A stretch of 64,000 nt of DNA from Turneriella sp. (lineage in GTDB: Bacteria > Spirochaetota > Leptospiria > Turneriellales > Turneriellaceae), in contig CBDIID010000003.1 in NCBI GenBank assembly GCA_965279515.1, positions 3,104,001 through 3,168,000 of the forward strand, read 5' to 3'. Shown piece after piece: positions 2,310 to 19,412 of the stretch. The translations under genes and the position numbers were made by a program. The notes beneath the pieces are model-generated. The model was not told where the DNA came from. It worked only from the letters and a program-made list of their open reading frames with translations, and made no database searches. The first letter of the stretch is position 1; each line of letters starts with the position of its first letter.

Positions 2310-3003
2310 GGATGCGGGCGAGCATTTGGGTAACGTCTTCGCGACGCCAAGCACGATTGCTAAAGAGATAGTACGTCTTTGCCTGGGGCAAAATCGGGTA
2401 GATCTCGTAAGTGGCGAGACCCACGGCATTCTGGCAAGGGGAGTCTTGCGGCAGGGCGTGGCGCGCACCACTATTTTTATGCGAAGGGTCGAAAAGCATG
2501 GGGACGACTTCGGCAATGTCCAAGCCCGCGAGCCAGTAGTCGCGGCCGCACCAACTCGCCAGCGCCGTAACAGACAACCGCAGCTTGGGATTTTCCTCTT
2601 TAATGGAGTGTATTAGACTCTTGTAGAATTCGCGCTGCGAATGAAAGACTTCGAAGTCGAGCTGCAAGGCCTCGGCCCCGCTGTTGGTCACGAGTTGCCG
2701 TATGGCATCGAGAATCAGCCGCTGCTGTGGAATTCCATAGCTATGCTGGCGGTGTGCACGCACATGCAGCACGGGCAGGGTGGGATGCCCCCCGGGTAAA
2801 AGGAGCGGTTTTGTGCGCGGCCGGAACACCGGCCTTTTTGCACCCAGATCGATTTCGCCCGCAAAGTAGGCGACGCCGGTTTCGTTACCCAGAAAGCGTA
2901 AATCTTCGGGGCGATCCCATGCCCAGAGATAGATGCGTGGCTCGGCGGCTAAGGCCGAAACCGTAAAAAGCAAGAGGCCGATGCCGCGGCGCATCATGGT
3001 CAA
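2293..3003 (-). CDS. DUF3142 domain protein (TIM-barrel/GH18-like)
   Basis: Motifs LWAWDRPEDL, LQLDFE, LSVTALASWC, EVVPMLF; signal peptide. Confidence 0.8.
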   Translation of the reverse strand: MTMMRRGIGLLLFTVSALAAEPRIYLWAWDRPEDLRFLGNETGVAYFAGEIDLGAKRPVFRPRTKPLLLPGGHPTLPVLHVRAHRQHSYGIPQQRLILDAIRQLVTNSGAEALQLDFEVFHSQREFYKSLIHSIKEENPKLRLSVTALASWCGRDYWLAGLDIAEVVPMLFDPSHKNSGARHALPQDSPCQNAVGLATYEIYPILPQAKTYYLFSNRAWRREDVTQMLARIHENLR

Positions 3004-4277
3004 TAGCCGTACTTTTCGCCCCAGAGTTTTTTCAATTGCTCGCGGATTTCGCGTTCGCGGGCGTTATTGCCGGGTTCAAAAAGTTTCGTGCCCATAATCT
3101 TTTCGGGCAGATATTCCTGCGCCGAAAACCCTCCGGCTTGATCGTGTGAGTATTGGTAGTCTTTGCCATAACCGATATCTTTCATGAGCTTGGTCGGCGC
3201 ATTGCGCAGGTGCAGCGGCACGGGCAAATTACCGGTTTCGCGTACCACATTCTGCGCGGTGTTGATCGCCGCATACGAGGCGTTGCTCTTGGGTGAGGTC
3301 GCAAGATAGGTCGCGGCTTGGGACAGAATAATGCGTGCCTCGGGATATCCGATCATATTCACGGCCTGGAAGCAGGTCGTGGCGACGACGAGCGCGGTCG
3401 GGTTGGCATTGCCGATATCTTCAGAGGCCGCAATCACCATGCGCCGCGCGATAAACAGCGCGTCTTCGCCACCCTCGATCATGCGCGCGAGCCAGTAAAC
3501 CGCGCCGTTGGGGTCGCTGCCGCGGATCGACTTAATGAAGGCGGAGATGATGTCGTAGTGGTTGTCGCCCGCCTTGTCATAGAGCACGGGATTTTGCTGC
3601 ACGAGTTCGAGAACTTTCGCGTCGGTGATTTCGATCGGGTCGCCGGCGATGCCATCGATCACGAGCTCAAATACATTGAGCAAACGCCGCGCATCGCCGC
3701 CCGAAAGTCGGAACAGGGCTTCGGTTTCGGCGAGCTCAATTTTCCGCGTTTTGAGAAAGCTGTCCTTTTGCATCGCGGTAGTTAATAACGAGAGTAAATC
3801 CGCCTCATCGAGATTTTTCAGAATGTAGACCTGGCAGCGCGACAAAAGCGCAGAAATCACCTCAAACGAAGGATTTTCCGTTGTGGCGCCGATGAGCGTG
3901 ATCTTGCCGGTCTCAACCGCGCCGAGCAGCGAATCTTGCTGCGCCTTCGAAAAACGGTGGATCTCGTCGATGAACAGCACGGGCTTCTCGGTAAAGAGCC
4001 CGCCGCCCGAGGCCTTCTCGATCACCTCGCGGATATCTTTGACACCCGAGTTGATCGCGCTCAGCGCATAGAAGGGGCGCTTCAGCTCGCCCGCAAGAAT
4101 ATGCGCGAGCGTCGTCTTGCCAACGCCGGGCGGCCCCCAGAGAATAATCGAAGGCAAATTCTTACTCTCAACCGCGCGGCGCAGCACAGCACCCTCGGCG
4201 ACGAGATGTTTCTGCCCGACATAATCGGCCAACGACTTCGGCCGCATCCGTTCGGCGAGGGGAATTGTGGATTTCAT
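3000..4277 (-). CDS. rarA: Replication-associated recombination protein A (AAA+ ATPase)
   Basis: PLAERMRP, Walker A GPPGVGKTT, FIDEIHRF, SAFIKSIRGSD, ASEDIG, PVPLHLRNA. Confidence 0.97.
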   Translation of the reverse strand: MKSTIPLAERMRPKSLADYVGQKHLVAEGAVLRRAVESKNLPSIILWGPPGVGKTTLAHILAGELKRPFYALSAINSGVKDIREVIEKASGGGLFTEKPVLFIDEIHRFSKAQQDSLLGAVETGKITLIGATTENPSFEVISALLSRCQVYILKNLDEADLLSLLTTAMQKDSFLKTRKIELAETEALFRLSGGDARRLLNVFELVIDGIAGDPIEITDAKVLELVQQNPVLYDKAGDNHYDIISAFIKSIRGSDPNGAVYWLARMIEGGEDALFIARRMVIAASEDIGNANPTALVVATTCFQAVNMIGYPEARIILSQAATYLATSPKSNASYAAINTAQNVVRETGNLPVPLHLRNAPTKLMKDIGYGKDYQYSHDQAGGFSAQEYLPEKIMGTKLFEPGNNAREREIREQLKKLWGEKYGY

Positions 4278-4522
4278 TTTGGTGTTGAGAATGACCGTAA
4301 CGGTATTTTCATCTGACCCCTCAAGCTATCTATTGTCAATTTTTCAGGGTTTCTCTCGGTTTTAGGCTGGAAGCCGCTGGGGAATTATGTCGCATTTTGG
4401 GTAATAGCCGATGGCAGAGTCTGTTTTTAGGGCAAATACGATTTGACGTAAGGTTCTCGCGGTTCGGTCGTGGGAAAATGTCGCCGAGTATTCAGGTTAG
4501 CGTGTGCATTAAGGAATTTTTG

Positions 4523-4807
4523 ATGCCACTTGTCAGAGATGTTTTGGTGCTGGGAAAGCAGGCGGCTATTGGGCCCGCTGCGATGAGCAGGGCATTGAAT
4601 TTTTTGCATGCCCGGAAATTTACATTGCTCAGCATCGAGGATGAAGTTATTGAGGGTGTTTTCATCAGGGATACGTTGCTCAAAAAAATTCCAGAACAAA
4701 AGGTGATTAGTCTCATATTGCAGCATGTTAAACCGACGATGCAGGAATCGGAGATTCTTAAGATCGATCTGGATGTAGAACTGCGTATAGAGGATGTATT
4801 CCTGTGA
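4523..4807 (+). CDS. Hypothetical protein
   Basis: AAGGA RBS before ATG 4523; stop overlaps the start of the kinase gene (GTGA). Confidence 0.7.
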   Translation: MPLVRDVLVLGKQAAIGPAAMSRALNFLHARKFTLLSIEDEVIEGVFIRDTLLKKIPEQKVISLILQHVKPTMQESEILKIDLDVELRIEDVFL

Positions 4808-5874
4808 CACAAGCAGCGCTTTTGACGGAAGTTAAAAATTGTGTTTGCGTGAAATTGTTTGATCGTGTCGCCGAATGCACTGAGATTGAAGGTGACAGGG
4901 AATCTACACACTTTGTTGTGATGGCCGAGCACGGATTTGATAAAGTCGTCGCGCCTTCTGATTTGCCCCGCTTTCCGAATTTCCGGGTTTTTGCAGATAT
5001 CAAGCCGCGGAGCAAATGGGCCCTGCTGGAAAATTTCGAAGATGTAGAGAAAATCGATCGCTCAGGTTATTGCGGTGTAGTGCATTTTAACAAGAGCCAG
5101 GGGCGCCACGTGCTCTACCGGTTTCTTGATGAGGAAGCGATGTCTGTTGCCGCGCGGGTTGAGAAGAGTTACGAAGATTACCTGGCCTTTCTCGCCCACG
5201 AGTTCCGCAATGTTGCGCATGGAGTTCTGAAAATCAGCGAGGTTAATTTTATGAAATTCAATCCCGCTGAATTTTTGAAGGTCGTGGGCGAAAAAATAAC
5301 GCAACTTACCTCGGTTTACCTTGTACCGGACAGGAAAATGCAGTATGCCTCTGAGGCTTCGTATGCCACGAAGATTTCTTTGGCCCGATTCGTAAGAAAT
5401 GCCCAATTGATTGTGGAGCCGTCCGCAATCGCCGCTGGCGTGAAAATCTCAACCTTTGTTTGCGCAAGGGCGCATGAAAAAATCACGATCTCCGAAACTC
5501 ATCTTCTTCAAGCGCTCGTGAATTTGCTGCTGAACGCGATACGCTATGCCGGTTTTCATGCCAATGTGCACCTTAATGCCCGGCTGGAAACCGATGGGTC
5601 TGGTCTGGAAAGCGTATGCTTCGCCGTTTCGGACGATGGCCCCGGCATTATCGAAGCTGAACGCGAGAAAATATTCGAGAAGAAGTACCGCGGACGCGAG
5701 TCCAGTAGCGTCGCCGGCTCGGGTTTGGGCCTATCTATTGTGCAAGATATGGCGCACAGGGTTGGTGGTGAGTGCGGCGTAAATTCACCCCCTGAGCTGT
5801 ACCTTGTACAACCCGGAAAAGGTGCGGAATTCTGGATTCGTGTACCGTTAGCCCGGGATTTCAAGGTTGCTTAA
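4804..5874 (+). CDS. Cytoplasmic sensor histidine kinase
   Basis: H-box AHEFRN, N-box NLLLNAIRY, G1 DDGPGI, G2 GSGLGL. Confidence 0.9.
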   Translation: MTQAALLTEVKNCVCVKLFDRVAECTEIEGDRESTHFVVMAEHGFDKVVAPSDLPRFPNFRVFADIKPRSKWALLENFEDVEKIDRSGYCGVVHFNKSQGRHVLYRFLDEEAMSVAARVEKSYEDYLAFLAHEFRNVAHGVLKISEVNFMKFNPAEFLKVVGEKITQLTSVYLVPDRKMQYASEASYATKISLARFVRNAQLIVEPSAIAAGVKISTFVCARAHEKITISETHLLQALVNLLLNAIRYAGFHANVHLNARLETDGSGLESVCFAVSDDGPGIIEAEREKIFEKKYRGRESSSVAGSGLGLSIVQDMAHRVGGECGVNSPPELYLVQPGKGAEFWIRVPLARDFKVA

Positions 5875-6061
5875 ATCTCTGCAGAACCTCTTCTAATCGC
5901 AGCGTCTGCATGGCGCCGACAGCATTCTCCCAGCGCCCCTCTGCACACAGCCCACTCACACCCGCAGCCTCATACGCCGCCTGCGCGGCAGCAATACAGG
6001 CATCGCGCACCACCGCAGCCAGCTCATCAGGGCTCAACTCTGATCGTAGTTTACCGGGCAT
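5861..6061 (-). CDS. Small conserved protein (66 aa); its 5' end is the first array repeat
   Basis: MPGKLRSEL..VRDACIAAAQAAYEAAGVSGLCAEGRWENAVGAMQTL resembles a widespread small family often loosely labelled acetyltransferase; ATG at 6061 lies inside repeat R1. Confidence 0.75.
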   Translation of the reverse strand: MPGKLRSELSPDELAAVVRDACIAAAQAAYEAAGVSGLCAEGRWENAVGAMQTLRLEEVLQRFKQP

Positions 6062-6090
6062 GGGGTAGGGACGCGGGTGGAATCGGCGCG
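6042..6090 (+). repeat. Array repeat R1
   Basis: GATCGTAGTTTACCGGGCATGGGGTAGGGACGCGGGTGGAATCGGCGCG. Confidence 0.9.
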
Positions 6091-6121
6091 TAAAGATTGT
6101 TAGGGGGAGCCGCATAGATAT

Positions 6122-7048
6122 ATGAAAACACTTCAGATTCATGATTTTTCAAAAATTTTGGATAAATTTGATCGAAAGGATAACATGTCTTCACCAAAGA
6201 TATATGATACTGCAAAAGCTGAAAATTTCAAGAACGAATTCGAAAATTTAGCGAAGACTCTCCAAGCCGATAAATACTGCGTAGTTGGAATCGATATACT
6301 TGGTTATAGTCAATATGAATTTGAAACTCAGGCAATAATTCCACCAGTATTTAAAATACTATTGGATGAGGTCCTCAGACACCTTGTGGGTGCTGAATAT
6401 TTTCTGTTTCATTCTCACACAGAGACTGATCTGCGAAAAAAATTTATTTCTACCGGGGATGGTGGATTCTTGGTTTTGGAAAATCCTCTACAAGGTTTGA
6501 TATGTGCCCTTAAATTTGCCTCGATTCTCCATTTGTTTAATTCTTATAGTTTCTATCCAAGTATGCGCAAGTATTTAGGGGAACTTAAGGTTCGTTATTG
6601 TTTAACCTATAACTCAGTTTTTGAGTTTGAAAGTAACTTCTTTGGATCGGGCCTTATAAACAATGCTCGAATTATGTCACGCGATAAGCTTGACCGCTGT
6701 CTAATGGATAAGGATTCATATACTTGGTTCCTCGAAAAAATAAATGGTCTTGAATCTTTGCAAATATTTGACATGAAAGAAATTTCCGTAAAGCTCGGTA
6801 TTCCGATTCCTAGCCTACCGAAGGGGCCTTTTAGCTACTCAGGAATATTGAACACGCCTTTTGACAAGCCTCGGCTGCGCGCCATAGTGACCCAGAAAAT
6901 CGGATCGGTAAAAGCTAAGGCTCAATTGCTCGACGTATACAACCTGTTCGTCCAAGTATCAACCACTTATCTGGAGGAAACCACTCATGAGCCAGACAAC
7001 TATGTTGTGAATTTAGGAAATCTCAATACGGTCGGTATCGCCGATTGA
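6122..7048 (+). CDS. Class III nucleotidyl cyclase-like protein (cassette)
   Basis: GIDILGYSQ, STGDGGFLV, NFFGSGLINNARIM match the metal-binding Asp and N-x3-R motifs. Confidence 0.65.
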   Translation: MKTLQIHDFSKILDKFDRKDNMSSPKIYDTAKAENFKNEFENLAKTLQADKYCVVGIDILGYSQYEFETQAIIPPVFKILLDEVLRHLVGAEYFLFHSHTETDLRKKFISTGDGGFLVLENPLQGLICALKFASILHLFNSYSFYPSMRKYLGELKVRYCLTYNSVFEFESNFFGSGLINNARIMSRDKLDRCLMDKDSYTWFLEKINGLESLQIFDMKEISVKLGIPIPSLPKGPFSYSGILNTPFDKPRLRAIVTQKIGSVKAKAQLLDVYNLFVQVSTTYLEETTHEPDNYVVNLGNLNTVGIAD

Positions 7049-7075
7049 TGCAACGTTTGGCGCAACTTTCCAACC

Positions 7076-7176
7076 ATGAAACAGATACGAATATTTTTTT
7101 TGGGATGCTCATTCTAAGCTGCAAAGATTCAAATGAGAACTTAACTACGCCAAAACAAAGTAAAACAAGCAAGCTT
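7076..7176 (+). pseudogene. Truncated, frameshifted lipoprotein gene remnant
   Basis: Adding one T to the T8 run gives MKQIRIFFFGMLILSCKDSNEN (lipobox-like); runs directly into half-repeat R2. Confidence 0.5.
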
Positions 7177-7200
7177 GCAGGTGGAATTGGCGGGGGAGGG
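7177..7200 (+). repeat. Array repeat R2 (3' half only)
   Basis: GCAGGTGGAATTGGCGGGGGAGGG. Confidence 0.85.
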
Positions 7201-7205
7201 GCGAC

Positions 7206-7499
7206 ATGAAATATCAGCTAGTGCTTCAATTTCCCGAGCCAAGGGAAGATCCTTTCGATTTTATTGAGCGCCTTAGCGAAGAGATTGAGGCAAATCTGAA
7301 GCATGTCTCAGATTTTGATGGGCATGATATTGGTCAGGGTGAAATTAATTTTTTCATTCGCACGGATTGGCCTGAAAGAGAATTTGAAAATCTCTTTAAC
7401 CTATTAGATACGAAAGAATTAAGAGCTGGCTATCGAGATTTTGATGAAGACGAGTATAAAAGTTTGTTTCCCCACGGCTCAAAATTTCAAGTTAAATGA
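7206..7499 (+). CDS. Small acidic hypothetical protein (cassette/immunity-like)
   Basis: MKYQLVLQF..DGHDIGQGEINFFI; starts 5 bp after R2. Confidence 0.8.
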   Translation: MKYQLVLQFPEPREDPFDFIERLSEEIEANLKHVSDFDGHDIGQGEINFFIRTDWPEREFENLFNLLDTKELRAGYRDFDEDEYKSLFPHGSKFQVK

Positions 7500-7549
7500 A
7501 ATAGTCGCAGGGAGGGGGTAGCGTCAGCAATGGCCTGAGATAGACATGT

Positions 7550-7996
7550 ATGGCAAAATATACATATAGCGAGTATCCACCAACCTTAGCCGAGGCCAGC
7601 ATCCCATATGCGGAATTTTTGAAGACGCAAAATTTACCGGGCCAGATAATTTGGGTAAGGCCATCACAAATTTTAATTTGGCGCCGAACCTGTTATGTAA
7701 AGAATCCAGGTAAGAACAGCTCAGAAGTTAACGATTTGTATAAAAATAACTATAAACGCTTTGGAGCACGGGTTGATGGTCTCGGACCTTTAGATAATCA
7801 AGTAGTAGCTCAAATTACAATGCCATTAAATGATCTGACAGCCCAATATCGTCAGGTCGGGACAAGTCACTTAGGCTACAGTATGCTAGTTGAGCCCATT
7901 AGATGCAAAGCTGTGCATTCCAATCTATTCTGGCGCGTTTTGCAGATGCTTGGGGCTCGCCATTGGGAAGAAGAGCCCAACCGCTTGCTGATGTAA
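7550..7996 (+). CDS. Hypothetical protein (cassette)
   Basis: 148-aa ORF co-oriented with the array. Confidence 0.7.
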   Translation: MAKYTYSEYPPTLAEASIPYAEFLKTQNLPGQIIWVRPSQILIWRRTCYVKNPGKNSSEVNDLYKNNYKRFGARVDGLGPLDNQVVAQITMPLNDLTAQYRQVGTSHLGYSMLVEPIRCKAVHSNLFWRVLQMLGARHWEEEPNRLLM

Positions 7997-8058
7997 GATC
8001 GAGGCACGACTACAATCAATACGCGCCAGTAGCGGAGAGCTCACGCAGAGTTTTTCCA

Positions 8059-8114
8059 ATCGTAGTTTACCGGCCACCGTGTGTGGGCGCGGGTGGACTG
8101 GCGGGGGGGGGGGG
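8059..8114 (+). repeat. Array repeat R3, ending in a G12 run
   Basis: ATCGTAGTTTACCGGCCACCGTGTGTGGGCGCGGGTGGACTGGC followed by G12. Confidence 0.92.
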
Positions 8115-8141
8115 CGAAACCCCCAAGAAAGATAGAACAAC

Positions 8142-8390
8142 ATGAGTGAAATAATTCAAGCCCATCAGTATTCAACTAATAACAGAAAATTAATTGAAAA
8201 TAGCTCACTTTGTGGTTGTTATTATTGTAAAAAAATATATTCAGCGGTAGAAGTTACAGATTACTTAGCGGAAGGCTCTGGTACTGCGCTTTGTCCGAAA
8301 TGCGGTATCGATTCTGTTTTACCTGATAAGAGCGGCTTTCAAATAACAAAGGATTTTTTGAAGTCAATGCATGCGTATTGGTTCTCATAG
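8142..8390 (+). CDS. Small Zn-binding Cys-rich protein (cassette)
   Basis: CGCYYC and ALCPKCGIDSV, ending HAYWF. Confidence 0.85.
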   Translation: MSEIIQAHQYSTNNRKLIENSSLCGCYYCKKIYSAVEVTDYLAEGSGTALCPKCGIDSVLPDKSGFQITKDFLKSMHAYWFS

Positions 8391-8404
8391 GAATAGGATA
8401 TTCC

Positions 8405-8454
8405 GATCGTGGTTTACCGGCCGCGGGACGTGGGCGCGGGTGGATTGGCGGGGG
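8405..8454 (+). repeat. Array repeat R4
   Basis: GATCGTGGTTTACCGGCCGCGGGACGTGGGCGCGGGTGGATTGGCGGGGG. Confidence 0.92.
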
Positions 8455-8492
8455 CGTCAGATTCGGCGGCTCAATTCCAGTAACCAGGGAGG

Positions 8493-9344
8493 TTGGTTTT
8501 GTCAGAAAAATACATTCAGAAAAATGACCCAAATTTAGTCCGTGAAGTCGGTATTTGCCGGGATATCCTGGAATCCATGCGACAAAGCGGATTGAAAGAT
8601 TTAGCAATCACCAATGTGGACTTCAATTTTACCTCCGATGATAAAGAAGAGCTGAAGGGTCTACAGGCCGACTTGGCTGCTGAATTCAAATTTAAAGTCG
8701 ATTACCTGAAATCCATCGCAACAATACGTCGCGAATATGAGCTTTCCATAGAAATGCAAGGTGTTATCATCAGCGATGACCTTTTAATTTTTCTCATTGG
8801 CTACCTATTCACGAAAGCCTTGAACCATAACTGCTGTTTCGGTGACTGGGGCGCAAGCGTCTCAGATAAAATCTATGACTTAAAGGTGGCGACGAAGGAT
8901 GCATTACAAGATAAAGGGTATGAGTATTATCATGGACAACGATTTTACCTCGCTTACCAGTCTTTTTATCTAGCCAACTTAAAAAAAGCCACTGCCGAAC
9001 TGGAGTTCAATCTGGGATGCCTTAAGTATGATTATGGTTTTCGGGGTGATGCAACCGACCATTTTACAAATGCCATTACTATAGATCCGAAAAATCTAAC
9101 GCCATATCTCAACCGCGGCGTTGCTTATTACGATATGCAAGAATATGAAAAAGCCATTTCAGACTATCAGATGGCAACGCGCGATGAGCCCAAGAACCCT
9201 AGCCCGTACATCAATTTGGGGAATGCTTATATCAAGCTCGGAAACAAGGACTTGGCAATCCAAAATTATGACAAGGCGATTGCCTTAGGCGCTGAAGATG
9301 GGCCGAAGATTAAGGCCCATGGACTTAGCCAAATTCAGCTTTGA
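8493..9344 (+). CDS. TPR protein with possible N-terminal RraB-like domain (cassette)
   Basis: TPRs YLNRGVAYYDMQEYEKAISDY and YINLGNAYIKLG; N-terminal VDFNF..FGDWGA; start uncertain. Confidence 0.8.
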   Translation: MVLSEKYIQKNDPNLVREVGICRDILESMRQSGLKDLAITNVDFNFTSDDKEELKGLQADLAAEFKFKVDYLKSIATIRREYELSIEMQGVIISDDLLIFLIGYLFTKALNHNCCFGDWGASVSDKIYDLKVATKDALQDKGYEYYHGQRFYLAYQSFYLANLKKATAELEFNLGCLKYDYGFRGDATDHFTNAITIDPKNLTPYLNRGVAYYDMQEYEKAISDYQMATRDEPKNPSPYINLGNAYIKLGNKDLAIQNYDKAIALGAEDGPKIKAHGLSQIQL

Positions 9345-9904
9345 TGAACTCAATCCGTATTGAAACAAAGAGATTGATCCTACGCACCTGGCAGCGCGAA
9401 GATCTGAGTGATTTCGCGGCTATGAACGCAGATCCCGATGTGATGCGGTTTTTCCCGGCGCCGCTGACGGCAAACGAATCCGGGTTGTTATTTGAAAGAC
9501 TGATTCGCCATTTCGAACTGAAAGGCTTCGGTCTATTTGCGCTTGAACTGAAATCAAGGCCAGGTTTGATTGGATTTACTGGCTTATCAACGGTGACCTT
9601 TACCGCACCGTTTGGCGAAGATATTGAATTAGGGTGGCGCATCATGCGCGAATACCAAGGGAATGGTTATGCAACCGAGGCCGCAAATGCGGCAAAGAAT
9701 TACGGGTTCGATGTATTGGGTCTCAAATCGCTTGTGGCATTTACTGTGCCAACGAACTTGCCATCCCGAAGGGTCATGGAGAAAATCGGCATGGTTCATA
9801 ACCCTGACGATGATTTTGATCACCCGAGAGTCCCTGAGCATCATCCGCTAAGGCGGCATGTGCTGTATAGAGTTGGGGCAACGAGTTCGGCTATTTCGCT
9901 CTGA
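9344..9904 (+). CDS. GNAT N-acetyltransferase, RimJ/RimL type (cassette)
   Basis: IETKRLILR, ELGWR..YQGNGYATEAA, NLPSRRVMEKIGM; TGATG coupling with the TPR gene; stop codon overlaps R5. Confidence 0.93.
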   Translation: MNSIRIETKRLILRTWQREDLSDFAAMNADPDVMRFFPAPLTANESGLLFERLIRHFELKGFGLFALELKSRPGLIGFTGLSTVTFTAPFGEDIELGWRIMREYQGNGYATEAANAAKNYGFDVLGLKSLVAFTVPTNLPSRRVMEKIGMVHNPDDDFDHPRVPEHHPLRRHVLYRVGATSSAISL

Positions 9905-9960
9905 TCGTAGTTTACTGGCTACGGGGTGTGGGCGCAGGTGGAATTGGCGGGGGAGGGGGG
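9903..9960 (+). repeat. Array repeat R5
   Basis: GATCGTAGTTTACTGGCTACGGGGTGTGGGCGCAGGTGGAATTGGCGGGGGAGGGGGG. Confidence 0.92.
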
Positions 9961-9980
9961 GAAAGCCTCGGGAAGATATT

Positions 9981-10397
9981 TTGAGACTAAATATTCATAC
10001 AGTTTACATTCATTTTGTTGATGGCGTTGAGGCATTTCGGCCAGTCAAAGCTTTGGTTGATTTGCAAGGTTGCTCACAGATATTACCAACTGCAGATTAC
10101 GACCCAACAGATAGGACAGAATTATGGTCTTTCAGACCTGGGGATAAGGTTCTGGTAAGAAATCAAGAATTCGGTAAAGACAAGACGATCGGCGATCTTG
10201 CTTACGCGCCATATAGAGAAGCCGAACAAATAAAGGACCTGAATTGGTTCCTCTATAATTTAGTGTTAGAAAAAATCCAGCTCGGCAAACCGATTCAAGA
10301 ATCTCACGCTGATTTTATTAACCAAATTAGAAACGATTTGGCACAGGGCATTTTTCATTATCCGGTCATCAAGGAAAAGATTCAGGATTTAGGATAG
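9981..10397 (+). CDS. Hypothetical protein (cassette)
   Basis: TVYIHFVDGVEAFRPVKA..YDP..ELWSFRPGD; TTG start chosen downstream of R5. Confidence 0.7.
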   Translation: MRLNIHTVYIHFVDGVEAFRPVKALVDLQGCSQILPTADYDPTDRTELWSFRPGDKVLVRNQEFGKDKTIGDLAYAPYREAEQIKDLNWFLYNLVLEKIQLGKPIQESHADFINQIRNDLAQGIFHYPVIKEKIQDLG

Positions 10398-10463
10398 TAC
10401 CTTGAACCGGGGCCTTAAGATGACAAAAAATGCCGCGATTACTGTGGTGGCTGGCTCCCGCCC

Positions 10464-10516
10464 GATCGTAGTTTACCGGACACGGGATATGGGTGTGGTG
10501 GGATTGGCGGGAGGAG
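10464..10516 (+). repeat. Array repeat R6
   Basis: GATCGTAGTTTACCGGACACGGGATATGGGTGTGGTGGGATTGGCGGGAGGAG. Confidence 0.88.
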
Positions 10517-10551
10517 CGTTGACCCCCAGCAGCCATACTAGGAGAATATTC

Positions 10552-11079
10552 ATGCAAGAATCAACTGAAGTTAAGATATTAGCTGGTGGTCCGCGAGCAG
10601 CAGTTATTAGCATTTTGACATTGGGCTTACTTGGAATATTCCTAAGATTCGCTTCGAGTAACTTTAATCCTCAAAACGAAATACCAGAAATTATGTTCCG
10701 CATCATTCTTCTTGCGCCATTTGCTTGGCTATTACTTAAACCTTCAAAGATCGCCTATCAAGGTGTTTTAGCCGTATTCGGAGTAAATTTACTGATCAGT
10801 TTAATAATCACCATCCAGGCTCCGACGCCGATAATCATCGTCCCTTTAATAATGCAGACAGTATTAGGCATTTATCTTTTCTCATCTTACGCACAGGCTT
10901 TTAGTACGAAGTCAAAAAATACGGTTAAGCGCATTTATGCGCAGGCCCGGGAGGCTGAATCGAAAAAGCAGTATTTGGAAGCTAAGAATCTATACGCGCA
11001 GGTAGTGACAGAGTATCCTGGCACCTTGGAGGCCGAACTCGCTGCGGAATGTTTGCAACATTTGCCGCCAACCGTTTGA
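10552..11079 (+). CDS. Four-TM membrane protein with C-terminal TPR-like helices (cassette)
   Basis: AGGAG RBS; four hydrophobic segments; YAQVVTEYPGT. Confidence 0.75.
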   Translation: MQESTEVKILAGGPRAAVISILTLGLLGIFLRFASSNFNPQNEIPEIMFRIILLAPFAWLLLKPSKIAYQGVLAVFGVNLLISLIITIQAPTPIIIVPLIMQTVLGIYLFSSYAQAFSTKSKNTVKRIYAQAREAESKKQYLEAKNLYAQVVTEYPGTLEAELAAECLQHLPPTV

Positions 11080-11117
11080 GTCTTCTAAGCTTAATTGGAA
11101 AGATTGCTAACAGAGAA

Positions 11118-11918
11118 ATGAAATTCTTAGTTTTGATAATTCTGATCATAATGCAAGTGCCAGCCTGCTCGAAACCACCTAAAACGGAGCCATTCGAGTG
11201 CAAGTGCTATTACAGATTTAGCTCGAATGACGTGAAACAAGTCCCTTTCGATCCCGACAAGAGTCACTCACTGTACGAAAAGCAAGAGTATGATAAACTT
11301 ATGGATTTGTGTCTTGCGTATGAAAAGCCCAGCCGTGAAGCGATTGGATGGCTCGCCGAAGCTTCCTTTGCGATCGCAGAGATAGGAGCTGGAAATGGGG
11401 TGCCCAATGGTTCACCGGAGATATACCTTGATAGCGCGTCTGATGAAATAGCTCACGATTATAGCCATGCAACAGAACGCCCCGCTCATTATTGGCCCAA
11501 GGAAATACGGTTCCGCTATGGTGCTTTAGCCATTTGCGCAACATCGTGTTATGCAGAGACAACAAACCCTGAGGACGAAAATTATTCTGAATACCAGAAA
11601 AGGCTACTCGTAGTCTTAATACGAACCAAGCAGTATGGTGAAATTCACAATTTCATAAAATCTGCAAAAGCATCGGGCATGTTGAAGAGATTGGATGCAA
11701 CTTTTTTTCTGGACCTTGGTTCTCAATTCATTAAGTTAAGTGACCTTATTGAAGGAGTTCGATACATTAAATTCCTGCATAAACACATTCCACAACAGAA
11801 AAATCAATTAACTTATTGGCGTAAGTTATTCTTATACGCGGCGGAGCATGACCAAAGACTCGGCGTTATGCAAAGAAATCATGCAAAATCAGAAATCGAT
11901 AAAACATTTCCGCAGTAG
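11118..11918 (+). CDS. Lipoprotein (cassette)
   Basis: Signal and lipobox MKFLVLIILIIMQVPAC. Confidence 0.75.
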   Translation: MKFLVLIILIIMQVPACSKPPKTEPFECKCYYRFSSNDVKQVPFDPDKSHSLYEKQEYDKLMDLCLAYEKPSREAIGWLAEASFAIAEIGAGNGVPNGSPEIYLDSASDEIAHDYSHATERPAHYWPKEIRFRYGALAICATSCYAETTNPEDENYSEYQKRLLVVLIRTKQYGEIHNFIKSAKASGMLKRLDATFFLDLGSQFIKLSDLIEGVRYIKFLHKHIPQQKNQLTYWRKLFLYAAEHDQRLGVMQRNHAKSEIDKTFPQ

Positions 11919-11940
11919 CCAATCTGATCGGGCTCGTTTT

Positions 11941-11992
11941 GATCGTAGTTTACTAACCACACGGTATGGGCGCGGGTGGATTGGCGGGGGAG
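11941..11992 (+). repeat. Array repeat R7
   Basis: GATCGTAGTTTACTAACCACACGGTATGGGCGCGGGTGGATTGGCGGGGGAG. Confidence 0.92.
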
Positions 11993-12006
11993 AGGGTAAG
12001 ACTCGA

Positions 12007-12420
12007 ATGATAAATCTCCTGAAATTCCTAAAGAGACTTTGGCCAAAGGAGAAAGAACTTTGGACTGAAGAAAAGAGCGAGGCTAAACAATGTCTCCATT
12101 GCGGTCGGCTCGGTTCGGGCTATCGAATAAGCTCCCCCGGTCAACTTGCGGAGACAATATTAATTCTGCAAGAGATGCTTAACGACCAAACGCTATCAGA
12201 GGTGCCAAATCTGAAAGGCATGGTTCAGAAGCACAACAAACCATTTGGCCGCGTGTCTGCACGAGGAAAGTGGGAGGATACGCTTATCTACGATTTCGAA
12301 TGTAAGCACTGCCATGATTTTTTTCATTTGGGAGTAGATACCTACCATGGAGGCGGTGGTAGATTGAAGAGAATAGGTCCAGAAATCCAGTATGATAGAT
12401 ATGGTAATACGCTTGCTTAG
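12007..12420 (+). CDS. Zn-ribbon hypothetical protein (cassette)
   Basis: CLHC and FECKHC..FHLGVDTYHGGGG. Confidence 0.75.
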   Translation: MINLLKFLKRLWPKEKELWTEEKSEAKQCLHCGRLGSGYRISSPGQLAETILILQEMLNDQTLSEVPNLKGMVQKHNKPFGRVSARGKWEDTLIYDFECKHCHDFFHLGVDTYHGGGGRLKRIGPEIQYDRYGNTLA

Positions 12421-12433
12421 AATGCTCATTTAC

Positions 12434-12487
12434 GATCCGGGTTTACCCGGCACGGCGCGTGGGCGCGGGCGGAATTGGCGGGGGAAG
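12434..12487 (+). repeat. Array repeat R8
   Basis: GATCCGGGTTTACCCGGCACGGCGCGTGGGCGCGGGCGGAATTGGCGGGGGAAG. Confidence 0.88.
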
Positions 12488-12503
12488 CGGAATTACATAA
12501 ACT

Positions 12504-12776
12504 ATGAACCCAAATAAAATGCCGGTTCTGAGTTTTTGGCCGCGCTTCTTTTTGGATTTATTGGCAGCCGTTACGATGACTATTGTTGGTATGTGGGGAA
12601 CATACCTGTTCTCACTTTCTGACTTCTGGCCCTCTCTTCGCCATCCTGGCGGGGGGCAACACAGTGACCTTAGGGATTTAGTTGAAAACCATTACTGGCT
12701 TATAATTTTAATCGGTACAGTCACTCTTACTTATTATCAACAAGCCAGAAGGCGAAAATCAGGTACGCAGAAATAA
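12504..12776 (+). CDS. Small two-TM membrane protein (cassette)
   Basis: Two hydrophobic segments; starts just after R8. Confidence 0.65.
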   Translation: MNPNKMPVLSFWPRFFLDLLAAVTMTIVGMWGTYLFSLSDFWPSLRHPGGGQHSDLRDLVENHYWLIILIGTVTLTYYQQARRRKSGTQK

Positions 12777-12863
12777 TTGTGCAACTTTGATGCATGTAGG
12801 GTGATGTGCCAAGCCTCCCGCACAGTAGCGGTAACCTTGGCCGGGCGCCTAGACCACTTTTTC

Positions 12864-12897
12864 TTGACGATGCGCTTGTTGTACAATAAATTGTACC
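12864..12897 (+). promoter_or_regulatory. yefM-yoeB promoter and operator
   Basis: TTGACG-N17-TAAATT overlapping TGTACA (12880) and TGTACC (12892), 12 bp apart, like the known YefM operator. Confidence 0.75.
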
Positions 12898-12899
12898 TA

Positions 12900-13148
12900 A
12901 TGGAAGCCGTATCTTACAGCGATCTCCGGAAAAATCTCAAGAAGTACATGGATGATGTATACACAGGCCATTATCCCCTGATCATTACGAGAAAAAATGA
13001 TGAGAATGTTGTCATGATTTCTTTAGATGAGTTTAACGCCTTACAAGAAACCAACTATCTCCTGGCATCAGACGCGAATGCAAAACATCTCAAAAAATCT
13101 ATATCACAGCATAAATCCGGCAAGTTGAAACAAATCAAGATTGCTTGA
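12900..13148 (+). CDS. yefM: Phd/YefM antitoxin
   Basis: VSYSDLRKNLKKYMD..PLIITRK..VVMISLDEFNALQETNYLL. Confidence 0.95.
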   Translation: MEAVSYSDLRKNLKKYMDDVYTGHYPLIITRKNDENVVMISLDEFNALQETNYLLASDANAKHLKKSISQHKSGKLKQIKIA

Positions 13149-13405
13149 TGAATGTTTTATTTACGGACGCCGGTTGGCAGGACTACATTTACTGGCAAAC
13201 GGAAGATCGAAAGACTTTAAAGAGAATCAATGATCTTATTAGAGATATCAAACGATCGCCTTATGAAGGCATCGGAAAACCAGAACCGTTGAAGCATCAA
13301 CTACAAGGGTATTGGTCCCGCAGAATTGATCCGGAACATCGGCTTGTTTACCAGGCTGAGGGCAATAAGACACTGATTATCATTGCCTGTCGTTATCATT
13401 ACTAA
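13148..13405 (+). CDS. yoeB: Txe/YoeB mRNase toxin
   Basis: WQDYIYWQ..GIGKPEPLK..YWSRRID.EHRLVY..CRYHY. Confidence 0.97.
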   Translation: MNVLFTDAGWQDYIYWQTEDRKTLKRINDLIRDIKRSPYEGIGKPEPLKHQLQGYWSRRIDPEHRLVYQAEGNKTLIIIACRYHY

Positions 13406-13450
13406 GTCAGCACTGCGGTCAGCGGCAGCGAGTCGAGGAGTATGGCACCA

Positions 13451-13501
13451 ATCGGCATTTCACGGCCACGGGGTGTGAGCGCGGGTGGAATTGGCGGGGG
13501 G
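13451..13501 (+). repeat. Array repeat R9
   Basis: ATCGGCATTTCACGGCCACGGGGTGTGAGCGCGGGTGGAATTGGCGGGGGG. Confidence 0.85.
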
Positions 13502-13567
13502 ACGTAAATCCAAGAGCTATTTTCCTGAAATATTGCCGCGAGTCTGAAAATAGTCGACATTCCATAC

Positions 13568-13586
13568 GTATATTGTAAACATATAC
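13568..13586 (+). promoter_or_regulatory. Putative brnTA operator (inverted repeat)
   Basis: GTATAT-N7-ATATAC immediately before the brnT ATG. Confidence 0.5.
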
Positions 13587-13886
13587 ATGATAATTCCTGA
13601 TTTTGAAGCCGTGGAAGGCTTTGAATGGGGCAAAGGGAATGTAGACAAAAATTATGATAAGTACCAGGTTACAAATCTTGAATGCGAAGAAATTTTCATG
13701 AACGAACCGCTGCTGATATTTTCAGACGATTTGCACTCAAATAACGAAGACCGATACACTGCCTTTGGCAAAACAAACCACTTTCGGTTTCTCGCATTGA
13801 CTTTCATTCTAAGAAAGAACCGAATTCGTGTTGTTTCAGCGCGCGATATGTCAGCGAAGGAGAAAAAGCAATATGAAAACACTTAA
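13587..13886 (+). CDS. brnT: BrnT family toxin
   Basis: GFEW..N..K..ECEEIF..HS.NEDRY..G..IRVVSAR.MS.KEK..Y. Confidence 0.92.
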   Translation: MIIPDFEAVEGFEWGKGNVDKNYDKYQVTNLECEEIFMNEPLLIFSDDLHSNNEDRYTAFGKTNHFRFLALTFILRKNRIRVVSARDMSAKEKKQYENT

Positions 13887-14148
13887 AAAAATGCCCAAAT
13901 TCAAGACTGAGGATGCAGAGAGAGAATTTTGGGCAAAGAACGACTTTACTGACTTTCTGGATTTTTCGAAAGGCATCAAGGCTAAATTTCCCAACCTAAA
14001 ACCTTCGACCCAGACCATTTCGCTGCGATTGCCGGAGTCACTACTGACCGATATCAAAGTTTTAGCGAACAGGCAAGACGTGCCTTACCAGTCCTATATC
14101 AAAATGCTTTTAGCGGAGAAGATTGCGGAAAAGCTTCGTAAGCGATGA
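13873..14148 (+). CDS. brnA: BrnA/CopG-family antitoxin
   Basis: PKFKTEDAEREFW..ISLRLP..IKVLANRQDVPYQSYIK. Confidence 0.9.
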   Translation: MKTLKKMPKFKTEDAEREFWAKNDFTDFLDFSKGIKAKFPNLKPSTQTISLRLPESLLTDIKVLANRQDVPYQSYIKMLLAEKIAEKLRKR

Positions 14149-14192
14149 TTTAGGGCCACAGCATTCACCAATCTCGATCCAATTCGCTTCCC

Positions 14193-14217
14193 ATCGTAGT
14201 TTACCAACCTAGGGGCG
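14193..14217 (+). repeat. Array repeat R10 (5' half; distal boundary)
   Basis: ATCGTAGTTTACCAACCTAGGGGCG. Confidence 0.75.
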
Positions 14218-14345
14218 AAGGCGAAGAGGTCGCCATCGCTTTCAAGTGTTCTCCCTTTGTTTTTGACATGCTGCGCGATCAAAAGGGCTTCCGGCCCGCT
14301 CCGTATCTGGCCTCGCGGCAACGTCGAGCTTAACAAACTCATTTC

Positions 14346-15107
14346 CTATGGTTTGCTGAGCTTCCATATCCTGGGTAGTAACTTACCCACCCGCCGGCGG
14401 TATTCGGCATAGGTTGATCCGAAGCTGTGCATCAGCGCGCGTTCCTCAAAATACAAACCGATAAAAATATAAGCGGTCACTGCTGCCGAGAGTAACGCAT
14501 GGCCGGTAGACATGTGGGGAGTCGCCCATAACAGAATCAGTATGCCGAGTTGCATCGGATGCCGTACGTAACGGTAAAGCGCAGGTTGTCGGAACTCGTG
14601 ACCTTGGTCTTGCGCGGATTTGCACCAGCCCGATTGCCGCAAGCCCACGAGAGCAGCATGGTCAATCAGGAAAGTAGACCAAACGGCGAAGATGAGGCCC
14701 AGGGCAAAAAACGAAAAAATCAGCGCTCTGGCCAGAGGCAGCTCTATGTTCCAAAGGATACCGGGCAACGGTTGCCAGAAAACGCAAATGGCGATGAGCA
14801 GCGTGGACGACGCGAATGCGTATACTGAACGCTCAAGCTGTATTGAGAACAATCGCTCAATCCATGTTTTTATTCGAGGGCGTGCTGCGACCGAATGGTG
14901 CAATCCGAAAATCAGGATTAAGGCAAGGTCGACGGCAAGCTGTGAAATCGTGTGGTTTTGCCATCGTGGCGAACGCTGATCAATGCCCAGGGGCCCAAGA
15001 TCCAATAGGAATAAGGCGAACCAGGCAAAGGCAATTAGGAACTCCAAATATGCCAAAGCCCCAAAAAAGCGGACAGCACTTTTGCCAAGTGTCGTTGCAT
15101 CGGACAC
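14346..15107 (-). CDS. Isoprenylcysteine carboxylmethyltransferase family membrane protein (MddA-like)
   Basis: FGLHHSVAAR, ERSVY, WQP, LYRYVRHPMQLG..WATP.M, EER.L..FG.TY.EYR. Confidence 0.85.
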   Translation of the reverse strand: MSDATTLGKSAVRFFGALAYLEFLIAFAWFALFLLDLGPLGIDQRSPRWQNHTISQLAVDLALILIFGLHHSVAARPRIKTWIERLFSIQLERSVYAFASSTLLIAICVFWQPLPGILWNIELPLARALIFSFFALGLIFAVWSTFLIDHAALVGLRQSGWCKSAQDQGHEFRQPALYRYVRHPMQLGILILLWATPHMSTGHALLSAAVTAYIFIGLYFEERALMHSFGSTYAEYRRRVGKLLPRIWKLSKP

Positions 15108-15911
15108 TTACTTATCCCTCCAATCAGGCGATTGATTACTTTCTTCCCAACCAGGGACTTCAAGCCAAAGACCCTCGCCGACCGCGACGAGCTCACGATT
15201 CGCATCAAAAACGGCTGAACCTACCAGATTGCGCTTGCCGGTAATTTTTTTTACCCAACCTATCACGATATGCTCCTTACCGATCATGACGGGTCGCAGG
15301 ATTTCCACTTCCAGCTTCGCGAGTACGGCTAATTTCAGCTCGCGGCCTGATAAAGCCGCGATGCCGCCCGGACAATCCAAGGCGGCCCAGATGTACCGCG
15401 CCGCAACCATGCCTTTGCCGTCATCGAGGGATGCGTCGGGAATCCAGGGGCTGGCCACCAGTTTGCCATCACGCCCTGAACCGCAGAAGATCCGCAGGCC
15501 GTCGCCGTCTACCCGCTCAGGACCGCAGACAAAACAACTGGGAAAATAATGGCGCTTAAAGCCTTCATACCCTGCCGACCATTCTCTTGCCTGATTGAAA
15601 TCGGGAGCCTCCGGCAGATCGACGGTTAAATTTCCACTGGAAGGACGCGCTTCGACCACGGGCTTGTCGCCATCGAGCAAGACCACGGAACGCTCCTCAC
15701 GGCGCACGGCTAATGCCGTTTGCAGGGGTGCCGGTGCCTTAACCCTTGCCTCTATCGGCCCCTGGGGATAATCGGTAACCAGTTCGGCGGCAAGACCGCA
15801 AACGTATCCGCCATTGCCGCTCTGGGGCGGGCCGCAAAATCTTTTCGCTACAATCGCCGACTCTGCGGGGCCGCGGGACATCATTGTCGTTTCGTGTTTT
15901 GAGTTTCTCAT
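15108..15911 (-). CDS. Double hotdog-fold thioesterase-like protein
   Basis: RFCGPPQSGNGGY, CFVCG..R.DGL, WAALDCPG; start uncertain. Confidence 0.8.
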   Translation of the reverse strand: MRNSKHETTMMSRGPAESAIVAKRFCGPPQSGNGGYVCGLAAELVTDYPQGPIEARVKAPAPLQTALAVRREERSVVLLDGDKPVVEARPSSGNLTVDLPEAPDFNQAREWSAGYEGFKRHYFPSCFVCGPERVDGDGLRIFCGSGRDGKLVASPWIPDASLDDGKGMVAARYIWAALDCPGGIAALSGRELKLAVLAKLEVEILRPVMIGKEHIVIGWVKKITGKRNLVGSAVFDANRELVAVGEGLWLEVPGWEESNQSPDWRDK

Positions 15912-15980
15912 ACCTTATCAAAAAACAGTTGCCGGAATGTTTTGCCCACGAAAGATCCATTGGAATCAAAGTATTTTTTA

Positions 15981-16454
15981 ATGGCTTCTCCCCGCAAACT
16001 CAAAGAAATTAAAATCGATCGAATTTTAGTGGTTCTTGCGGGGCTGCGCGAAATTGTCATGGAAGAGCTGGCGGATTCATACCGCCGGCTGCATGTCCAT
16101 GACATCAACCCGCCCCATGGTGCCGTTCTTTGCGCCCTGCAAACCAAGCAGCCCACCACGATGCTTGAAATTGCCGGGAAAATATTCCGGGATCAGTCGA
16201 CCGTTACCGCTCTTGTTACGCATTTGACGACGCTGGGTTACGTTAGGGTAATTCAGTCGCCCAAAGACAAACGGAAACGATTCGTCGAATTGACCGATCA
16301 GGGAAAAGAATTGCGCGCCAAAGTTACCAAAGCAGCCCGTAAGATTCAAAGACAGATTTTTGACGGGATTCCATCCCGGGACAGGAAAAAACTGATGGAG
16401 ATGCTCGTGCAGATTGGGCATAACCTGCACAGCCCGCATTTTTCAGAGCAATAA
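15981..16454 (+). CDS. MarR family regulator
   Basis: DQSTVTALVTHL..GYV..SPKDKRKRFVELT; divergent from the thioesterase. Confidence 0.9.
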   Translation: MASPRKLKEIKIDRILVVLAGLREIVMEELADSYRRLHVHDINPPHGAVLCALQTKQPTTMLEIAGKIFRDQSTVTALVTHLTTLGYVRVIQSPKDKRKRFVELTDQGKELRAKVTKAARKIQRQIFDGIPSRDRKKLMEMLVQIGHNLHSPHFSEQ

Positions 16455-16530
16455 AGTCGCGCCGCGTCCCGGCTCGTATCGGCATTGACAATTTAACGCG
16501 GCCTGAGGGATTTATTTTGGGTCATAGGGG

Positions 16531-17433
16531 ATGATTACGAAAGGCGCCGGATATTATTCGAAAAAGGTCTGTAACAACGTGACTGCGATGCTGGCATACT
16601 GGGATTCAAATCAGTTATGCCGTTTTGCAAATGATGCTTATCTGCATTGGTTCGGCCGTACAGCGGAAGAGATGATCGATAAGATTTATCTGAAAGATCT
16701 GTTGGGGCCGTTATACGAGATGAATCTGCCTTATATTGAAGCGGCTTATAAGGGGCATCCGCAGGTCTTTGAACGCGCGATTACGGCACCGGACGGGAAA
16801 ATCCGGCATAGCATCGCGAGCTACACACCGGATGTGATAAACGGCCGGATTGAGGGTATTATCGTTCATGTCGCCGATGTTACATATCTGAAGGAAATAG
16901 AGCTGGAGCTGAAGCGCTCAAAGGAAAAAGCCGAGAAATTAGCGGCTCACGATTACCTGACCGGGCTTCCCAACAGATTATTTTTGAACGACCGTATTGC
17001 GGGCGCACTCACATATGCAAAAAACCATGGCACATCATTAGCGTTGTGCCTGTTGGATTTAGATTATTTCAAAAAAATCAATGATTCCTACGGCCATTTG
17101 GCTGGTGATGAAGTTTTGAAAGAATCTGCCGCTCGGCTAAAATCCGCGCTGAATTCGGCCGACACCGTTTACCGAATCGGCGGTGACGAGTTTGTGATTG
17201 TCATGGAACAAATCACGGATCCGAATCAAATTCAAGTCACCGCGGAGCGGATATTGGCGCGTTTCAGGCAACCCATGACAATCCTCGGGCAGGAAATCAC
17301 GCTCACGCTGAGCATCGGAACAGCCGTTTGCAAAGGAGCAAAAACCTCTGCTGAGGAATTGTTGCAGAAGGCAGACCACGCACTTTATCAGGCAAAAAGC
17401 CTGGGCAGGAACCGCTACTCCAACAGCGCCTGA
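16531..17433 (+). CDS. PAS-GGDEF diguanylate cyclase
   Basis: PAS domain; DYLTGLPNR, FKKINDSYGH, RIGGDEF. Confidence 0.95.
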   Translation: MITKGAGYYSKKVCNNVTAMLAYWDSNQLCRFANDAYLHWFGRTAEEMIDKIYLKDLLGPLYEMNLPYIEAAYKGHPQVFERAITAPDGKIRHSIASYTPDVINGRIEGIIVHVADVTYLKEIELELKRSKEKAEKLAAHDYLTGLPNRLFLNDRIAGALTYAKNHGTSLALCLLDLDYFKKINDSYGHLAGDEVLKESAARLKSALNSADTVYRIGGDEFVIVMEQITDPNQIQVTAERILARFRQPMTILGQEITLTLSIGTAVCKGAKTSAEELLQKADHALYQAKSLGRNRYSNSA

Positions 17434-17544
17434 AAAATTGAGCTCAGTTTACAGCGTCTGAGAGACCGGCCGGCATTCTTAGTTCTTGACGGTGTTCATG
17501 GTCCGATCTACGCGACTCCTAAACTTATTTTACCGGGGGAAATT

Positions 17545-17865: not shown

Positions 17866-17917
17866 GTTTCCATAATCGGCGCGGTTATCCGCGAAGCGTG
17901 GGCGCCGCCGTGCGTAT

Positions 17918-18556: not shown

Positions 18557-18620
18557 ATTCTCCGTCTGCGGGATTTTTCCTGTACCGTTGATCCGCATTC
18601 ACAGTTGATTCCGGCAGGCG

Positions 18621-18995: not shown

Positions 18996-19044
18996 GATCT
19001 GGTTTTGATTTACGCCGCGTCGTTTGACGCTTTAGCTGGCGGCC

Positions 19045-19407: not shown

Positions 19408-19412
19408 ATCCC

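Follow-up and report, generated by a model that had tools for sequence, protein, structure and literature searches.

A single-locus gene array on a short repeat that is not attC, tied to a non-canonical integron system in Turneriella sp.

Can genes be lined up as in an integron by a site that is not attC? The question is raised by an 8.2-kb locus of Turneriella sp. (assembly GCA_965279515.1) that lies in a stretch of 64,000 nucleotides of contig CBDIID010000003.1 (positions 3,104,001 to 3,168,000, forward strand). We call this whole stretch the window and give positions in it unless contig C3 is named. The locus is an array in which a ~50-bp G-rich repeat, present in ten co-oriented copies (eight full and two partial), delimits nine AT-rich gene units. 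The array is real, confined to a single locus, not of the attC type and tied to a non-canonical integron system. Tentatively, with somewhat less than even confidence, we read it as a relic: a satellite array whose genes come from the integron pool, whose attC sites gave way to copies of a head site resembling attI, and which was served in trans.

Ten co-oriented copies had been placed here by an earlier reading of the letters alone (the sequence-only reading), and pattern and profile searches bear them out. The copies sit strictly between genes:

S1, 6042–6101, plus strand: head copy; core at 6043–6088, then a native-like CGTAAA, then GTT at 6099–6101
S2, 7177–7201, plus strand: 3′ half of the repeat, with the G-run
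S3, 8058–8114, plus strand: copy nearest to the consensus, 37/39
S4, 8405–8454, plus strand: 35/39
S5, 9903–9961, plus strand: 36/39
S6, 10464–10516, plus strand: 32/39; in frame with the following open reading frame (ORF)
S7, 11941–11996, plus strand: 33/39
S8, 12434–12487, plus strand: 31/39
S9, 13450–13508, plus strand: 33/39; GTAAA element retained 3′ of the G-run
S10, 14193–14223, plus strand: terminal copy, the most decayed, 26/39

We built the repeat profile from the eight full copies, which therefore match it by construction. A search of the 4,898,536-bp genome gave exactly ten matches at E ≤ 10, all within positions 6032–14222. The repeat, which had not been noticed elsewhere in the window, is thus confined to the array across the whole genome and is not a dispersed repetitive extragenic palindrome or miniature inverted-repeat transposable element. 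The partial copies S2 and S10 scored E values of 6.7e-4 and 2.6e-3 in a 17-kb search. Both had been taken for halves, which is correct for S2, whereas S10 is a decayed copy that can be aligned over ~31 nt and is no clean 5′ half. Full copies agree pairwise at 26–34 of 39 positions. Identity to the consensus drops from S3 to S10 (37, 35, 36, 32, 33, 31, 33 and 26 of 39; rho −0.84, p = 0.009; with S10 left out, −0.76, p = 0.049), a trend that entry of new units at the left would produce. G-run length varies between copies, and variants common to several copies are not nested in array order. With copies lying 5–20% from the consensus, the array seems at present to be either inactive or slow. Positions 4000–16000 are covered, with zero differences, by two contigs from a study that may have supplied the assembly.

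The repeat is not attC, as the sequence-only reading had held. No RYYYAAC...GTTRRRY pair with a spacing of 40–250 nt was found on either strand of positions 5900–14400, and among the eight full copies AAC precedes one and GTT follows two. On neither strand does any copy fold clearly better than its shuffles (16 folds, z −2.0 to +1.2), whereas a long attC from congener G011, taken as a positive control, reached z −5.0; the consensus fold has an unfavourable covariation term (+1.45). The unit ends are not complementary: eight array units scored 5.5 against their own partner and 6.3 against those of other units, whereas R′ and R″ of 68 long-attC cassettes of the same genome scored 6.2 (own) versus 3.8 (cross) out of 7, with 46 perfect, the two statistics being different in form. 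Profiles of the full long attC and of its left and right ends gave no credible match in positions 3000–20000. Rfam returned no family match in positions 1–25000, and no tRNA was found.

Other element classes were tried and rejected. Counts of sigma-70 promoters and terminators were equal to or below those of shuffles. A CRISPR-like array was dismissed on the absence of Cas1 and on unit length, which ranges from 302 to 1453 bp and is not constant. For a coding relic, S1–S9 have no synonymous excess in any of six frames and contain a stop and frameshifts; S10 differs from the consensus by seven changes, five of them synonymous in one plus-strand frame. An origin of the units from mRNA by reverse transcription was rejected because promoter regions are retained upstream of both toxin–antitoxin modules, yefM-yoeB and brnT-brnA. 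The genome encodes neither Cas1 nor IS110. It has one reverse transcriptase, one large serine recombinase and one Y1 transposase (0.5 Mb off), and the repeat lies near none of them.

Beyond this genome no second array came to light. The exact repeat pattern occurs in 0 of 60 relatives; a sequence model gave weak single or double matches in 10 of them (E 7e-4 to 0.1), never clustered. Among 150 genomes of the class there was one weak isolated match with no neighbouring copy, and a loose pattern run on 33 genomes of the order gave 3 single matches versus 4 control matches. A GTDB scan returned 23 loci and a viral scan 3, none with a second credible copy, and there were no matches for two metagenome patterns and none in plasmids. 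As many congener genomes are fragmented, these negatives mean "not found" and not "absent".

Each of the three congeners for which the whole region was compared lacks the segment from ~4.4 to 18.5 kb, between rarA and a gene at 18621; in G006, G001 and G003, the homologue of the gene at 18621 directly adjoins the small gene whose start the head copy overlaps. On this comparison the array is a lineage-specific insertion in a variable spot. The locus is thus empty in congeners, and no reordering was found. A search for a sister strain gave none; all six flank and cargo proteins found are singletons at 90%.

The nine units measure 302–1453 bp and have 38–46% GC, compared with 53% for the chromosome and a median of 0.43 for 122 long-attC cassettes. 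Each carries one to three plus-strand ORFs, the first of which begins about 13–90 bp past the conserved repeat core. Pfam matches comprise TPR, GNAT, YefM-YoeB and BrnT-BrnA/CopG, and with the GC and ORF layout they agree with the AT-richer plus-strand cargo of GNAT and toxin–antitoxin genes claimed before. Pfam searches of the units and the flanks examined found no recombinase or recombinase remnant, which also accords with that account. The units and the features lodged among them are:

Unit 1 gene, 6122–7048, plus strand: 308 aa; relatives in Leptospira and Bacteroidota, one named as a guanylate-cyclase-domain protein
7049–7066, plus strand: putative long-attC right-end remnant (spacer and R′ box), with the second-best R′ score of ~8500 positions
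7076–7176, plus strand: broken lipoprotein-like gene start with a T-run frameshift, truncated by a deletion that also took the 5′ half of S2
Unit 2, 7206–7996, plus strand: 97-aa ORF at 7206–7499 and a doubtful 148-aa ORF at 7550–7996; no Pfam match
Unit 3, 8142–8390, plus strand: 82-aa Cys-rich ORF
Unit 4, 8499–9904, plus strand: TPR gene at 8499–9344 coupled to a GNAT gene at 9344–9904
Unit 5, 9981–10397, plus strand: ORF of no family
Unit 6, 10552–11918, plus strand: membrane protein gene at 10552–11079 and lipoprotein-like ORF at 11118–11918
Unit 7, 12007–12420, plus strand: 137-aa ORF with a Cys motif
Unit 8, 12504–13405, plus strand: 90-aa ORF and yefM-yoeB with its own promoter
13412–13423, plus strand: decayed R″-like box directly 3′ of yoeB, 9/12 identical to the cassette R″ in G011
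Unit 9, 13587–14148, plus strand: brnT-brnA toxin–antitoxin pair; the G011 homologue is solo, without attC

The host genome contains a large integron-type system of its own. We found two arrays of ~220-nt attC-type sites, one of 75 (C3, ~90.8–169.9 kb) and one of 51 (~3734–3805 kb), all at E < 1e-10; at E ≤ 1 the long-site profile has 157 matches in the genome. The sites end in AAC-N4-TTTAC and GTAAA-N6-GTT and are 185–230 nt long across the genus. Judged by R′ and R″, which complement each other in 68 cassettes, these long-attC units are genuine cassettes. Both arrays have an attI-like head and no adjacent integrase.

Four tyrosine recombinases are encoded in the genome, two XerC/XerD-like and two IntI-like (Y3 and Y4). 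With the TIGR02249 model, searched genome-wide, Y3 scores 161 and Y4 149 bits versus a cut-off of 265. Y3 is intact and keeps the catalytic residues; it has 23 residues where IntI4 has 64, that is, it is without the IntI insertion. Its gene lies at 2.93 Mb of C3 (C3:2926093–2927193), ~180 kb from the repeat array, beside a long-attC site remnant. Being far from both long arrays, it could serve those too only in trans. Orthologues occur in 11 of 13 congeners. Among 19 regions around them, those of G011, G002, G005, G013 and G007 have 185–218-nt sites upstream of the gene, and many of the remaining regions stop at a contig edge or show no array. The trans-acting recombinase that the sequence-only reading had postulated therefore has a candidate in Y3, encoded elsewhere in the genome and with orthologues that head long-attC arrays in congeners. 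Y4 (C3:2781225–2782130) occurs in 7 of 13 congeners as a solo core gene that has a conserved motif upstream, and its locus carries no array in the eight relatives examined. In G025 a Y4 homologue stands divergently beside a Y3 homologue, directly before attI and the array, an arrangement hinting that the two may work as a pair.

Several observations link the short-repeat array to this system. A search with the cargo DNA gave eight homologous placements, a 35-nt chance match and the small gene being left out. The homologues of yefM-yoeB (79% nucleotide identity) and of the GNAT gene (72%) in G011 have long attC sites on both sides, so that part of this cargo, first described as typical of integron arrays, is indeed carried by long-attC cassettes in a congener. 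None of the cargo has a homologue in the long arrays of this genome itself. The junctions also correspond: S5, inside which the GNAT stop codon lies, starts 29 nt past the last aligned GNAT codon, and in G011 attC starts at 33 nt; the decayed R″-like box 3′ of yoeB is at the G011 position, 27 nt before S9. As long-attC remnants, this box and the R′-like end before 7076 are suggestive only, being short and chosen from ranked lists. Overall, the units match long-attC cassettes in size, GC and, for two modules, identity, yet carry no long attC.

The repeat itself shows similar ties. Its 5′ end reads ATC-N4-TTTAC, in the same register as the AAC-N4-TTTAC of the long-attC left end, and with a profile of 121 such left ends the copies fall in the top 0.05–1.6% of genome positions. 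An L′-like element after the G-run is commoner than expected (P 0.005–0.008), although it may simply be the native CGTAAA element. The copies align with attI of G005 and G007, two near-identical sites (P = 0.005–0.007 versus random genome windows). Weak as they are, these links of the repeat to integron sites agree in direction. The sequence-only reading had set the array apart from integrons; the evidence ties it to the long-attC system of the genus and suggests a local chromosomal source for the repeat.

That source is indicated by the head copy and by a gene that is absent from the sequence-only account:

Small gene, 5861–6061, minus strand: 66 aa, conserved; automatic label "putative acetyltransferase", no Pfam match

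Its start codon and first seven codons fall inside S1, and it is present in 8 of 13 congeners. The CGTAAA element of S1 is 27 nt from its ATG. This ATG-27 nt-GTAAA spacing is shared with three of the eight congeners (G011, G007 and G006), with a near-match in G003 and no counterpart in the other four. In mononucleotide shuffles, alignment of S1 with the native sequence upstream of the small gene gave P = 0.001 for G011 and P = 0.01 for G006; S3–S9 aligned with none of the congeners' native small-gene regions (P ≥ 0.066). Because S1 matches these native regions at the start of the small gene, local chromosomal sequence is the most likely ancestor of the repeats. The GTT at 6099–6101 is a possible attI-like crossover point. 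On the minus strand, six of the eight full copies retain ATG or GTG in the frame of the small gene, with zero indels in that part. Among the eight congeners, none of which carries such units, the small gene differs in its N-terminus and in the region upstream.

The satellite-array reading can be put as a series of steps. A chromosomal segment, comprising the 5′ end of the small gene and its upstream region, would have resembled the attI of the system and become a secondary entry site. The recombinase would be Y3, possibly with Y4, acting on the repeat in trans. Cassettes would enter at the array head, and an aberrant recombination between the head site and the R″ end of a cassette would put a head-site copy in place of the long attC. 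Circles carrying such a copy could then re-enter at the head. The outcome would be an alternating order of genes and sites, co-orientation, loss of attC and rightward displacement of older copies. The crossover point and the order of events in this scheme are presumptive. The 3′ G-runs of the repeat may also act as ribosome-binding sites.

A number of results weigh against this scheme. S2–S9 have a G-run in place of the CGTAAA of S1 and share five core positions unlike S1; given these states, the copies would stem from a derived copy, and today's S1 is no direct template. S1 did not match the native regions of G007 and G003 (P 0.18 and 0.33). Six of eight attI sites, including both array heads of this genome, gave P 0.68–0.97. 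The 9 nt before the repeat are not R″-like (mean −11.05 versus a background of −11.2; only S9 is R″-like), which counts against a direct R″ crossover because such a crossover predicts that signature. GTT stands 3′ of only two of the eight full copies. Only two of the eight homologous cargo placements are cassettes, the other six being solo and none beside the short repeat, and four further cargo proteins have no homologue in five congeners. No second array or repeat-linked unit was found in the other genomes searched, and contigs from four runs of one study, a form of data that drops rare variants, contain no excision or reordering joints. The alignments caught the eye first and were tested afterwards, which makes the similarity statistics post hoc; nor are the copies independent of one another. 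For a gene-capture array with a different recombination site, the central proposal of the sequence-only reading, the non-attC repeat, the empty locus, the cassette cargo and the candidate enzyme speak in favour, and the lack of a second array, of reordering and of an excision joint speaks against.

A further-reaching idea, which we consider doubtful, is that a cassette site was newly born from an ordinary gene start. A short integron-like recombinase would have adopted this site, which would have replaced attC at every junction, and the array would grow and shuffle by a double-stranded attI × attI-type route beside the single-stranded long-attC route. Were it true, the birth of such a site would offer a natural snapshot of how cassette sites originate; the origin of gene cassettes and their sites is called an open question in a passage of PMC12901181. 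A genome in which one candidate recombinase goes with two giant long-attC arrays, and with another array made of copies of a local site, would allow a direct test of new-array founding at a secondary site and of the attC swap. Should the repeat be inert, the locus would be no more than a local curiosity, and interest would be confined to the long-attC system. That system is notable in itself, with about 126 cassette sites, an enzyme below the IntI cut-off and a place on a spirochaete branch outside Treponema, which part of a 2013 paper gives as the only spirochaete clade with integrons (PMC3607928). In open-access literature, supplements aside, no paper that we found deals with Turneriella integrons, with integron attC sites in Leptospira or with arrays made wholly of head-site copies.

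The closest known counterpart is the delta-attI cassette, in which, according to a section of PMC12901181, attI or a part of it stands in place of attC and which IntI1 excises and inserts; recombination between the attI L-box and the attC R″ is offered there as a possible origin. Like these attI-ORF-attI cassettes of class 1 and 2 integrons, the present units consist of a gene followed by a copy of the head site instead of attC (PMC12901181, same section). Unlike them, as far as that section describes them, they are not single exceptions in normal attC arrays beside intI with an intact GTTRRRY core. All nine junctions here are of the head-site type, most are without GTT, and the candidate recombinase is ~180 kb off and without the IntI insertion. 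In its co-oriented AT-rich units of one to three genes, its toxin–antitoxin and GNAT cargo, its polar decay and its lack of an adjacent integrase, the array resembles sedentary chromosomal arrays and attC-site clusters that have no integrase (CALIN, as defined in part of 10.1101/2022.02.28.482270), but its sites are without the AAC/GTT core, a significant hairpin or complementary unit ends. With the long-attC, short-integrase arrays of the genus it has in common the host, an overlapping cargo pool, unit GC and size, and the A-x-C-N4-TTTAC register; unlike theirs, its sites are ~50 bp instead of 185–230 nt, G-rich, unstructured, restricted to a single locus and without R′/R″ complementarity. 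The array is thus arranged as an integron array but departs from one in integrase, core, fold and complementarity of the unit ends.

The rival that survives best, though unlikely, is an imported CALIN-like orphan array whose sites would be short divergent attC of an unsampled lineage or sites of another recombinase, the native likeness of S1 being chance or a hybrid junction. The ATC-N4-TTTAC register with its high left-end scores, the L′-like element after the G-run and the distinctness of S3–S9 as a family from S1 all fit an import. The absent AAC/GTT core, the folds no better than shuffles, the covariation term and the non-complementary ends do not, and no donor was found in genome, metagenome and class-wide searches. 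Moreover, the register was picked by eye, and the L′-like signal is possibly just the native CGTAAA.

Accretion without any recombinase is less probable than an import. The repeat would then be a break- and recombination-prone G-quadruplex sequence, with units gained and lost by homologous or microhomology exchange between copies. Six of the eight plus-strand motifs of four G-runs in the window lie on repeat copies, and G4Hunter-like scores of the copies reach 1.07–1.60, with five of eight at 1.2 or above, a level found in 0.04% of 20,000 genome windows. The non-nested variants and variable G-run lengths would also follow from such exchange, and a role of G-quadruplex DNA in recombination has been suggested for the Borrelia vls locus (part of PMC3585125). 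However, exchange between copies leaves unexplained how a new gene acquires a copy and why the 5′ boundary is sharp, and the chromosome has about 300 such motifs without arrays. A repeat of 50 bp at 70–87% identity is, furthermore, a poor RecA substrate.

We rate lower still a tandem accretion of minimal islands at the 5′ end of the small gene, each bringing a replacement start and upstream region, with the repeats as att sites. Tandem accretion involving integrase-less cis-mobilizable elements (CIMEs) is described in part of PMC5704250, and, going by that part, the array is like it in having integrase-less units set apart by copies of a chromosomal target site that extends into the end of a gene. 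The in-frame ATG or GTG of six full copies, the live gene start in S1 and the presence of one large serine recombinase agree with this explanation. It is opposed by the target, since the repeat spans only the variable N-terminal seven codons, which are not conserved among congeners and so provide no shared site. There is also no synonymous bias in the frame of the small gene (0.34 versus 0.30 expected), no recombinase remnant in any unit and no repeat near the serine recombinase. Unlike CIMEs as that source depicts them, the units are 0.3–1.5 kb long and have no traces of integration or transfer genes. Finally, that there is no capture system, the array being what is left of a repeated coding segment or else an artefact of assembly, can hardly be maintained: the mostly synonymous changes of S10 and the frame shared by S6 and the next ORF speak for it, but the two unchanged spanning contigs and the frame analysis (no synonymous excess in S1–S9, a stop and frameshifts, intergenic copies) largely refute it.

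Some smaller observations concern the cargo and flanks. The unit 1 protein belongs to a nucleotidyl-cyclase-like family with 43 members across Leptospira, Bacteroidota and Fibrobacter; it could conceivably act in defence, and PADLOC gave it no match and only three weak partial matches among the 14 proteins scanned. A viral search with the unit 3 protein found no match, and at 90% the unit 8 YefM falls into one cluster with a protein attributed to Turneriella parva. In congeners rarA and the small gene are neighbours; here an orphan ORF and a histidine-kinase-like gene (4397–5874) have been inserted between them. A methyltransferase gene at 17918–18556, outside the repeat array, has a 48% homologue inside a long array (C3:149208–149819), which suggests that the variable region holds more cassette-derived genes.

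Others concern the long-attC system and the wider genome. In G011 (L069, ~10430–12300), four tandem 459-bp cassettes, apparently gene-less, follow immediately after attI. The single reverse transcriptase, a 512-aa frame at C3 ~1300966–1301969, adjoins a long-attC remnant and may therefore be cassette cargo. Genes and attI regions just 5′ of the long arrays have a striking excess of C on the cassette strand in this genome as well as in L069 and L070. An IS-like element with the same terminal sequence is inserted a few bases past the R′ box of several cassettes (C3 ~3740500–3741850; ends near 99157, 3750285 and 3766305). A further repeat cluster at C3:3380136–3389577 has up to seven spaced copies and 52 shared 11-mers and is neither long attC nor the repeat of the window.

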